Of a stretch of 64,000 bases of DNA, positions 58,701-61,700 are shown piece by piece. The stretch is from an uncultured Spirochaetota bacterium (lineage in GTDB: Bacteria; Spirochaetota; UBA4802; UBA5550). The stretch is from NCBI GenBank assembly GCA_963827275.1, contig CAWHAA010000006.1, positions 1-64,000 on the forward strand. Direction: 5' to 3'. Position 1 is the first letter of the stretch, and each line of letters begins with the position of its first letter. Position numbers and translations under genes: made by a program. The notes under the pieces were generated by a model that saw nothing but the letters and a program-made list of their open reading frames with translations, searched no databases and had not been told where the DNA came from.

Positions 58701-61700
58701 GTTCATATCCAATTATAAAAACAAATGCTATTAATCAGTCAGTTTATACGACATATGATTACCGATTTGGTGAAAAAAGTTCTGAAACTGATTCAAACGG
58801 AAGTACAATTCGTTATGAATATGATGAATTCGGAAGGCTTGTAAAAACTGTCAACCCGGGTGACGAGTGGTCCAGTACAGTTATTTATAACATAACCGGT
58901 GATCCAAATACGCAATATATAGAGACACATGTTGCCGATGAATCAAGTTCTGGATTTCATTATAAACGTCAATATATGGATGCACTTGGAAGGGTTTATA
59001 AAATTATCCAGAAGGCAGAAGAGACGGATGCCTTTACTCTTGAGCAGGAAGTGGATATTGAATTTAATGAGCATGGTCAAAAAAACAGAGAAACCATGCC
59101 GTATTTAATCGGTTCATATAACGAAAGCCCACTTTATATCAAATATAAATACGACTCGTTAAATAGATTGATCTTGATTGATTATCCTGATAATACTTCA
59201 AAAAAATTTATATTTGCAAATGAGGGTGATGGAGAATATTCTGAAACATTAATAGATCGTGATGGTACAATGCACAAGTTGGTTCGCAATGCAAGGAATA
59301 GGGTAATTAAAAAAATAGATTCTAATATTGTTAATACCTCATATTCATATAATAACGCTGGCTTGTTGTCATTGGTAACTTATACCGATGGTTTGAAAAC
59401 AATGATAGAATATGATTCGCTTGGTAGAAAGGTGTCAATCTGTGATCCCAACACTGGTATTTCATCATATTCTTATAACGATGCTGGTTATTTATTATCT
59501 TCACATGATGCAATGGGTAATACGGTATCATATGAATATGACGCGATTAATAGAATTAAAAAAATACATCATCCCGAGGGTACTGCCGATATTAACTACT
59601 ACTATGATGATCCATCAATTAAAAACAGCCGGGGGAGAGTAACGAAAATAACAGACGGTGTGAGTGAATCGACTTTTGCATATGATGGCAAGGGACAAAT
59701 AATAATAAAAACACAAAAGATTGATGGCATGAAATTTATATTCCAGATGGAATATGATAAAGTCGGGAGAGTTGCGCGTTTGACATATCCCGATGGGACA
59801 GCAATATCCCGTCAGTATGCTAATCTTGGGTATCTCAAAAATGTTGATTGGAATGGATATTCTATCGTCCAGTATGGACGTTTCAAAGAAGATAAAAACA
59901 GCAGTATTCGGAATATTGAGAATCGGGTTTATCGAATCACTGGAGATGGTGTTGAGACCAATATATTATATAATCCAGCTACTACCAAGCCTGAACGAAT
60001 AGTGTCAAAAAAGAATTACGGTAGCGGTGACGTTATTGAAGATGTAACTTACGAATATAATGTCTCTAATATAACATCTATAACCGACAACCTCGATAAT
60101 TCAAAATCGCAAACCTTTGCTTATGATTCATTAAATCGCCTGATTTCCGCTGATGGCGTATATGGTCATATCTCTTATAATTATGCAAACAATGGTAATT
60201 TAAGAAAGAAGGGCGATCTTGTACTTAATTATAATGATTCGTCTCATCCATATGCTGTGACCAGTGATAGTGTGGGAAACAATTATTTGTATGATGATAA
60301 TGGTAATATGATTTGCCGTAAGGGAAGTGAGCTTGTCTATGATAGTTTAAATCGTCTGATGGCAATTAAAAATAATGGTAATAATATAGCAATCTATAAT
60401 TATGATCATACTAATCATAGAATTAAGAAAACATTAGGAAATGGAACGGTCATTTACAATATCGAAAATTTATATGAAATTACGAGAATTCCTCAATATC
60501 CTGATCTTCATACAAAATATTTTTATGGTGTAAAAAATGAATTAGTCGCTCAAATGACTATGGAAAATTCTCAACTTTTATCCTTTAACAATCCGTCTGT
60601 TATTAACAGCTATTATGCAAAGAATAATCTTAAGGGTCTTATATTATTCACATATGAGTATTTGAATTATTTAAGCAATAACAAGAAAACATACCGTTAT
60701 TTTATTTATGTAACTTTACTTCTTGGTTTTTTTGTATTGTTAACATTAACTTTTAAAAACATAATCATATATAAAAGTAGAATAAAAATTTTACCTGTTT
60801 GGGCAATAAAAACAGTGCCAGTACTTTGCTTTACTGTATTTGCATCATACGGTTTATTCGGCTGTAGTAATATGATCAGTGATTCTCATGACAATGGCGA
60901 ATCTCCTTGGAATATTTTGATATATACGGATGTTAATCTACCATCCGGCACACCAGTTCCGGGAATGATGTTTTTTCATCCCGATTACAATAGAAATATA
61001 AGTTATGTTACCAATGCGCAGGGCGAAAAAATCTATCAGGCATATTATAAACCTTATGGTGAAATTTCTGAAATGTCAGGGAGAGATGTTGTTCGGTATA
61101 AATTTAATTCCCATGAGCATGACCAGGAATCTGGACTTATGTATTACAATGCCCGCTATTATGATTCCAATATTGGAAGGTTTATTACCCCTGATACAAT
61201 TGTCTTTGATCCGGGGCAGTCGCAAACATCCAATCGATATATGTATGTAGTTGGTAATCCTATCGCTCTCAATGATGCTACTGGCAATAGTCCTGAATCA
61301 CAGCTTTATCTGTATGCTGAAACAATGATGGCCAATTGGTCTAAATGGTCTGAACAAGAATCTCAAAAAAGTCTGGGCGTCCAGTTTTGTAAATCAATAA
61401 TAAATTCATTTACAGGTATATTCTCATGGATAGAGGGAGGCTATAAAGGATTTCTATCCGGTTGGATTACAAATTTAATAAATTATCCTGGCTTTAGTTT
61501 GTCATATTCATACAATGCAGGCTGGGGAGTTACTGGAGGTTTATATGGCCGATATTATTGTATAAGCTGGGGTAATGGTTTCCACTGGCAGGAAAAAGGT
61601 CCCAACGGTGGCTGGAGCATCTATGGTACAGTTTCATTGAGTTATGAAAAACTTTCGGTTGGGCTGGCGACCTCATATAACTTTAATAAGCATTCAATAA

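Follow-up and report, generated by a model that had tools for sequence, protein, structure and literature searches.

How are Sec-exported Rhs capsules loaded, anchored and carried across the outer membrane in bacteria without a type VI secretion system (T6SS)? This question is raised by a single gene in the window, the 64,000-nucleotide stretch of DNA analysed here, which forms the start of contig C6 of an uncultured Spirochaetota bacterium. The gene (55763..62233, + strand) starts at an ATG at 55763 with GAGGA just 5' and encodes 2,156 amino acids, arranged as signal peptide, SpvB, FG-GAP propeller, YD/RHS shell, insert, Rhs core and C-terminal tip. Profile searches yielded 62.9 bits for SpvB and 73.2 bits for FG-GAP_3 (Pfam), and 69 bits for Rhs core model TIGR03696 against a cut-off of 32.5 (NCBIfam). 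No further Rhs core was found in the 4.13-Mb, 92% complete genome. T6SS VipB and PAAR were also not found in it, in agreement with the original prediction of a locus without T6SS or PAAR, and no PAAR or VgrG domain was matched in the Rhs protein with Pfam or NCBIfam. A search of the genome for TcA (VRP1) gave no match, but the control genomes were likewise without one. The features of the locus are as follows.

55763..62233, +, full Rhs ORF (profile matches; sole Rhs core found in the genome)
55763..55843, +, N-terminal Sec signal peptide (Kyte-Doolittle value, KD, 2.49; likely signal peptidase I site after residue 27)
55844..60565, +, shell: SpvB, FG-GAP repeats, YD strands, last strand ELVAQMTME (Pfam/NCBIfam; structure model)
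60623..60682, +, amphipathic helix before the first transmembrane helix, TM1 (model helix 671-687)
60698..60754, +, TM1, putative stop-transfer anchor of the shell (hydropathy; model)
60755..60796, +, basic loop, predicted to be cytoplasmic, n-region of the internal signal (net charge +5)
60797..60865, +, internal lipoprotein-type signal: h-region and lipobox LFG-C (G and C invariant in 9/9 aligned homologs)
60866..60961, +, flexible linker; PW motif at 60902-60910 partly conserved (pLDDT <50 at model residues 748-759)
60962..61285, +, Rhs core with Arg/Asp/Asp autoprotease residues in NARYYD, RFITPD and DATG (TIGR03696)
61286..62233, +, variable C-terminal tip of 315 residues, presumed toxin (common to a few close homologs)
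62239..62820, +, small lipoprotein-like gene, probable immunity partner (weak LIC12231-family match; linked copy)

The Rhs gene is located within a low-GC island extending from 55.0 to ~66 kb of C6 (GC ~0.33 vs 0.55-0.58 for contigs), and the closest named relatives of its product are from Spirochaetota MAGs, with identities of 67% and 50-52%. The tip had no Pfam match. Its best atlas score was 0.81, without an assignment, and an AlphaFold model built from four sequences had a pLDDT of 33. Tips vary among homologs, and the nuclease tips Tox-REase-7 and WHH are carried by insert-bearing homologs (P0012, P0086); the tip of the window protein is presumed to be a toxin. The gene that follows matched the LIC12231 family only weakly (42.8 bits vs a cut-off of 180), and a copy with 77% identity lies 3' of the closest homolog; it is the probable immunity partner. 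Further downstream, two or three short overlapping ORFs without a Pfam match (63026-63780) are possibly remnants of another toxin tip and its partner. At the end of the low-GC island (63788-64000 and C6:64001-67200), inspection by eye also identified a transposase-like ORF and a tandem of three ankyrin-like genes whose starts resemble those of lipoproteins; the last of the three is short.

The domain organization places the protein in a known class. According to the accessible text of Zhang et al. 2012 (PMC3482391), TcdB/TcaC-type toxins consist of a signal peptide, SpvB, an integrin-like propeller, RHS repeats and a variable tip with a small 3' gene, and spirochaetes are listed among their hosts. 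The window protein has the same layout of signal peptide, SpvB, propeller, RHS shell with core Arg/Asp/Asp residues and variable tip, with a small gene downstream. An internal transmembrane hairpin, lipobox or signal-peptidase cut was not found in the available part of that account; the hairpin and the predicted cut distinguish the window protein from the toxins described there.

The insert comprises 135-136 residues between paired strands (ELVAQ and GMMFFHPD) just before the Rhs core, a site at which insert-free relatives have ~5-15 residues. The original prediction had described an insertion of about 130 residues between adjacent strands that forms a membrane hairpin, in a protein with an N-terminal Sec-type signal peptide and both autoproteolysis Asp residues. 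Its motifs, TM1, the basic loop and the Cys codon were all located again on the sequence: YFYGVKNELVAQ, which it had placed in the strand ahead of the insert, at 60518-60553, GMMFFHPD at 60962-60985, RFITPD at 61178-61195, DATG at 61274-61285, and the Cys codon TGT at 60863-60865, which specifies Cys1701 when counted from the ATG at 55763. The size and position of the insertion, the signal peptide and both Asp residues hold as well, core residues R299, D312 and D339 being invariant in 9/9 homologs. A crude N-terminal hydrophobicity rule was passed by 37 of 39 full-length lipobox-type homologs.

Transmembrane and signal calls were made with our own hydropathy rules. The insert is organized as an amphipathic helix, a transmembrane helix, a basic loop, a signal-type helix ending in LFG-C1701 and a flexible linker. 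TM1 is the most hydrophobic 19-mer following the signal peptide (KD 2.20) and has the lowest Hessa-scale sum (-2.14). The second helix (KD 1.88, Hessa +2.88) contains Lys and Pro; as it is marginal as a transmembrane segment, it is better read as a signal-peptide h-region. Thus, one half of the proposed hairpin is a strong transmembrane candidate, whereas the other resembles an export signal. By these rules the hallmarks of a lipoprotein, i.e. a basic n-region, h-region, lipobox and conserved Cys, are present internally, but the signal is not at the precursor N-terminus because the Cys is residue 1701; an N-terminal position occurs only in the free-standing forms described below. The window protein has three K/R residues before TM1 and four after it, so positive-inside topology is weak for this protein taken alone. 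A third transmembrane helix that would invert the topology was rejected, as the upstream 19-mer exceeded a KD of 1.6 in 0/60 and 0/92 homologs.

Conservation was assessed in 116 rows derived from 72 proteins and the reading frames of 73 loci after removal of duplicates; rows were kept if a core was matched with 330 or more residues ahead of it. The two-helix insert was present in 64 of the 116 homologs and the Cys was kept in 63 of the 64. The rule had called 61 rows, one of which (P0045) was false, and four more with a hydrophobic insert missed a threshold; when these four were read by eye, three were seen to retain the Cys and one (L057) has Tyr. A transmembrane-like stretch was present in none of the 51 insert-free rows (KD at most 1.38). 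Because Cys constitutes just 0.28% of shell residues, its occurrence in 63/64 inserts is not due to chance. The homolog alignment that had been proposed as a test therefore finds the insert, the hairpin and the Cys retained. Sequence identity of the insert to that of the window was 9-23% in 49/56 homologs and up to 53% in the rest, and the conserved Cys was encoded by TGC in 26 cases and TGT in 19. Cys1701 was the only Cys conserved at >=90% across 46 rows; an intramolecular disulfide was rejected since a second conserved Cys was absent from these rows. TM1 had a KD of at least 1.6 in 58/60 lipobox-type rows, the net charge of the loop was >=0 in 60/61 rows, and the linker varied from 10 to 112 residues. 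Comparison of K/R content across TM1 in the lipobox set (n=60) gave more after it in 37 rows, equal numbers in 14 and fewer in 9. Positive-inside topology, claimed earlier for the window protein, is thus moderately supported in the set as a whole, although weak in that protein itself. An RFxxxD-type Asp was present in 52/57 lipobox-type rows and in 91/92 insert-bearing rows of a second clade described below.

Hosts of the insert include Spirochaetota MAGs, several Leptospira species, Leptospiraceae MAGs, SAR324 and a deltaproteobacterium, and it is present in Rhs genes of Leptospira chromosomes as well as MAGs. Matching genes also lie on Leptospira plasmids, Leptospira accounting for 88 of 1,106 matching plasmid records and for the top 38 rows. 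Insert-bearing genes are annotated only as RHS proteins; one Leptospira Rhs protein is annotated as a cytoplasmic membrane protein in one strain, without comment in the accessible text (PMC2387172). When rows were grouped by record title, the residue at -1 relative to the Cys was G in 11 and A in 1 of 12 non-leptospiral spirochaetes, and T in 8, N in 7, S in 4, G in 4, Q in 1 and H in 1 of 25 Leptospiraceae. The latter distribution fits the relaxed leptospiral lipobox described in the available part of PMC4758666. In a crude lipoprotein set from the host genome, the -1 residue was G in 43, S in 42 and A in 15 of 136 proteins. The -1 residue therefore appears to track the lipobox usage of each host lineage, a pattern rather than a statistic because the rows are kin and not independent. 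One SAR324 insert scored 18.6 bits with NCBIfam model NF058595 ('invert_tail'; cut-off 37), a match rejected as a hydrophobic look-alike; the cut-off of this model was reached in 0/1 and 0/101 genomes.

P0045, the false call, contains the same hairpin but ends in VEA-Q. With this protein as query, the best 120 of 371 matches were taken; anchoring succeeded for 108 of them, and the other 12 were left out. Among these matches, hydropathy and loop charge identified the hairpin in 92 of the 108 anchored rows, and 85 of the 92 have an [AV]-x-A motif ending 6-12 residues before the core. The corresponding backgrounds were 423 of 5,400 random shell windows (7.8%), 4/16 other rows and 1/60 lipobox rows. 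Five of the seven rows without the motif have I, L or C at -3. This stricter test replaced a loose A-x-A count (82/82) that also matched insert-free rows. Six of the 92 listed members are named: four Verrucomicrobia, Poriferisphaera corsica (Planctomycetes) and one Acidobacteria. A WPFxxGRxP motif is conserved before TM1 in this clade. K/R residues were more numerous after TM1 in 90/92 rows, a circular result as loop charge had defined the class. In one protein (P0191, residues ~1900-1990) a hydrophobic helix and A-x-A site are followed by a dockerin domain ahead of the core. As the peptidase motifs differ between the two clades at the same site, the shared feature is the predicted cut, and the lipid is lineage-specific. 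We consider an internal cut between shell and core quite likely, and lipidation of Cys1701 likely. The signal peptidase II split of the original prediction stands as a conserved site, but lipidation is not invariant, the lipobox being replaced in the second clade by a site of signal peptidase I type. We conclude that an internal stop-transfer helix followed by an export signal is a real and widely conserved feature of TcdB/TcaC-type Rhs toxins.

In a tree of 216 rows from which the insert columns were excluded, 50 lipobox rows, including the window protein, formed one clade (support 0.886). A tree of 53 chosen rows and 770 columns recovered the second clade (SH-aLRT 100) with insert-free rows nested inside it. 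Tests with 2,000 replicates, fewer than advised, did not reject a single origin with losses (AU p 0.21) and rejected a clade of insert-bearing rows only (p 0.0003). The insert has been lost repeatedly among close relatives, indicating that it modifies rather than enables the toxin class and is not required. Insert-free genes nested among insert-bearing ones (L072:3-9599, L090:3-7964, P0160 and P0162) keep short linker leftovers, and in L109:368-2775 the frame breaks within TM1.

The core also occurs by itself. A 395-residue gene in a Leptospiraceae MAG (L107) consists of signal peptide, Cys, linker, core and tip; it has AAGGA at its 5' side and is preceded by Kelch-type and other non-Rhs genes. 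P0199 is a second gene of this arrangement. In five of 120 short matches the Cys falls within the first 40 residues; two appear to be genuine free-standing lipoproteins, whereas the rest look like fragments. Orphan core and tip cassettes 3' of full genes often start inside the internal signal (L085:10640-11977, L096:14595-15011, L056:7118-10451 and L073:3681-4904), which suggests that tips are exchanged by recombination at the insert.

Residues 953-1845 were modelled with AlphaFold from 46 sequences (pLDDT 88.4). The model contains the shell strands, helices at model residues 671-687, 689-717 and 727-746, disorder after the Cys (model residue 749) and then the core strand. Comparison of the shell model with TcdB2-TccC3 gave a TM-score of 0.70-0.71. 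When the shell (1282-1602) and the post-Cys core (1701-1842) were modelled as two chains the score was 0.92, compared to 0.00 for the best control; as the two parts may score well through their resemblance to solved Rhs shells, this model shows geometry and not cellular binding. The mark applied was reached by 116/157 solved and 2/215 mismatched pairs. Two-chain runs agreed in at least 84% of contacts with a partner pLDDT of at least 76, the best contacts paired the strands that flank the insert, and the PW motif of the linker touched the shell. Given a cut, we consider it very likely that the core re-docks on the shell.

In TcB-TcC capsules the division into B and C lies far upstream. By contrast, the predicted split of the window protein adjoins the core and would be made by a membrane hairpin, even though the shell fold and core Arg/Asp/Asp residues are the same as in TcB-TcC and T6SS Rhs structures (4o9x, 4igl, 7pq5, 8cp6, 8h8a). 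T6SS Rhs effectors are carried by PAAR/VgrG, whereas no T6SS marker was found in the window genome. In Bradyrhizobium, the FbcH cytochrome b/c1 precursor is a single chain in which an internal signal peptide marks the cut, and the halves stay together; FbcH joins two separate domains, however, while the cut proposed here falls between strands of one sheet. PEP-CTERM, GlyGly-CTERM and MYXO-CTERM sorting tags, the tag being internal in MXAN_5598, combine a transmembrane helix with a basic cluster in Sec-exported proteins, according to the accessible part of PMC11980579. With its WPFxxGRxP motif ahead of TM1, the second clade resembles such a tag in layout. The window protein differs in that its Cys comes after the second helix and is oriented as in an ordinary lipoprotein; no NCBIfam sorting-tag model exceeded its cut-off in the inserts, and there was no clear signature motif in the window's clade. 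Bacterial teneurin-like proteins are Sec-exported YD shells with the toxin inside, and their Gram-negative members are predicted lipoproteins, but with a conventional signal at the protein start, an internal signal-peptidase cut not being mentioned in the available text (PMC13018210). No account of the insert was found in the literature covered, including the accessible parts of PMC4140679 and bioRxiv 2025.05.08.652813; subscription journals lie mostly outside this coverage, and supplements such as the alignments of PMC3482391 could mention it.

With moderate confidence, we favour a six-step model in which the protein, a polymorphic Rhs toxin of the TcdB/TcaC type exported by Sec, is synthesized as a precursor of two parts. 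First, the N-terminal signal would direct ~1,600 shell residues into the periplasm. TM1 would then halt transfer, leaving the basic loop in the cytoplasm, and the next helix would restart export as an internal signal. In the third step, which strong conservation suggests, Lgt would lipidate Cys1701 and signal peptidase II would cut before it; signal peptidase I may make the same cut without a lipid in the second clade. Fourth, as modelled, the freed core and toxin would re-dock, with the first strand of the core pairing with the last of the shell so that the capsule closes round the tip. In the Rhs family the core Asp protease releases the tip inside the capsule, and this would be the fifth step. 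In the sixth, which is the weakest, the tethered capsule would reach the surface, most likely through a type II secretion system (T2SS), after or without anchor removal and held by the lipid. The insert would thereby turn a released toxin into a tethered one that is assembled stepwise. The original prediction that both shell halves lie outside the cytoplasm is supported, but Sec together with signal peptidase II brings the protein no further than the periplasmic face of the inner membrane, and the original account offers no onward route for the tethered shell.

The host genome contains matches to two LspA (C8:138288 and C5:382382), three Lgt (C9:53462, C4:182404 and C5:311087), four LolA-like proteins and four rhomboids, and a secretin inside a gene run that reads as a T2SS operon (C6, 146.9-159.0 kb). 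GspD was present in 22 and VipB in 4 of 23 genomes, all of them insert-bearing and hand-chosen, so GspD may simply be common there. The accessible text of PMC11980579 describes T2SS carrying C-terminally tagged proteins to the surface. Display of the capsule by T2SS remains a tentative suggestion that we hold slightly more doubtful than probable. A CPBP/Rce1-like intramembrane protease gene (52719-53495, with lower GC than its neighbours) was rejected as encoding the release enzyme because it had no match in 75 related loci. No sorting or release protease was linked to Rhs in these 75 loci, the rhomboids of the genome being unlinked, which counts against the sixth step. In Leptospiraceae, recurrent neighbours of the Rhs gene encode a Kelch protein (15 loci), a 334-residue protein (14) and a TPR-like protein (6), for example L053:236-1759, L081:445-1446 and L093:4870-5973; none of these matches the window between 44 and 64 kb.

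Would the same features be expected of a hairpin that is never cut? A permanent two-helix anchor, with the Cys perhaps lipidated, would let the capsule act from the producer's membrane. Its topology is identical to that of the hairpin model, cleavage being a prediction from sequence, and T2SS extraction of uncleaved TM-tagged proteins is discussed in the accessible part of PMC11980579. This arrangement is unlikely, as it does not explain why the second helix ends in different, well-formed peptidase motifs in the two clades or why free-standing lipoprotein forms exist, and that helix is poor as a lasting transmembrane segment.

A Sec-exported chain would stop at a transmembrane helix such as TM1. 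This expectation conflicts with a further proposal, in which both helices lie outside the producer's membrane, packed within or against the shell, and would enter the target membrane at a later stage to aid toxin crossing. Precedents come from mosquito SGS1, with predicted transmembrane helices inside its Rhs shell (available text of PMC9935623), and from some T6SS Rhs proteins that use N-terminal transmembrane domains (accessible part of bioRxiv 2024.02.26.582050). However, the SGS1 helices follow the core while those of the insert precede it, and the basic loop with a lipobox or A-x-A site is a signature of the producer's own machinery, the lipobox tracking host lineage. We regard stowed helices as improbable.

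Two fused genes might instead still be read separately, with translation of the core and toxin as a lipoprotein beginning at an internal start, so that internal processing would not be needed. The free-standing lipoprotein core genes, and the many downstream orphan cassettes that begin within the insert, would be compatible with such a start. The window gene, though, lacks an in-frame ATG between TM1 and the Cys; the sole other candidates are a TTG within TM1 and a GTG within the h-region. Moreover, just 20/60 homologs have a Met 14-40 residues ahead of the Cys, and in every full-length row counted the reading frame continues through the junction, which makes separate translation an equally improbable account. 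Finally, although insert GC is 29%, a chance hydrophobic stretch from AT-rich DNA is refuted by the conservation of the layout in >150 homologs of two clades and has a negligible probability.

If the six-step model is correct, the window protein would offer a clear example of cleavage by signal peptidase II 1,700 residues from the start of a chain, and this internal-signal class would escape tools that scan only N-termini. More broadly, it is conceivable, if rather doubtful, that the insert marks a widespread needle-free mode of Rhs delivery in two-membrane bacteria, in which a housekeeping signal peptidase would cut in mid-sheet, the shell would fold first on a membrane tether, the toxin would be fed in outside the cytoplasm, and the loaded capsule, held by a lipid-anchored plug, would be displayed by T2SS. 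On this reading, separate lipoprotein genes for core and toxin could supply one shell with different toxins, and tethered and released forms would be switched as the insert is gained or lost. The insert occurs in Rhs genes of Leptospira and of PVC-group bacteria, and it suggests how bacteria without a needle may load and display Rhs toxins.
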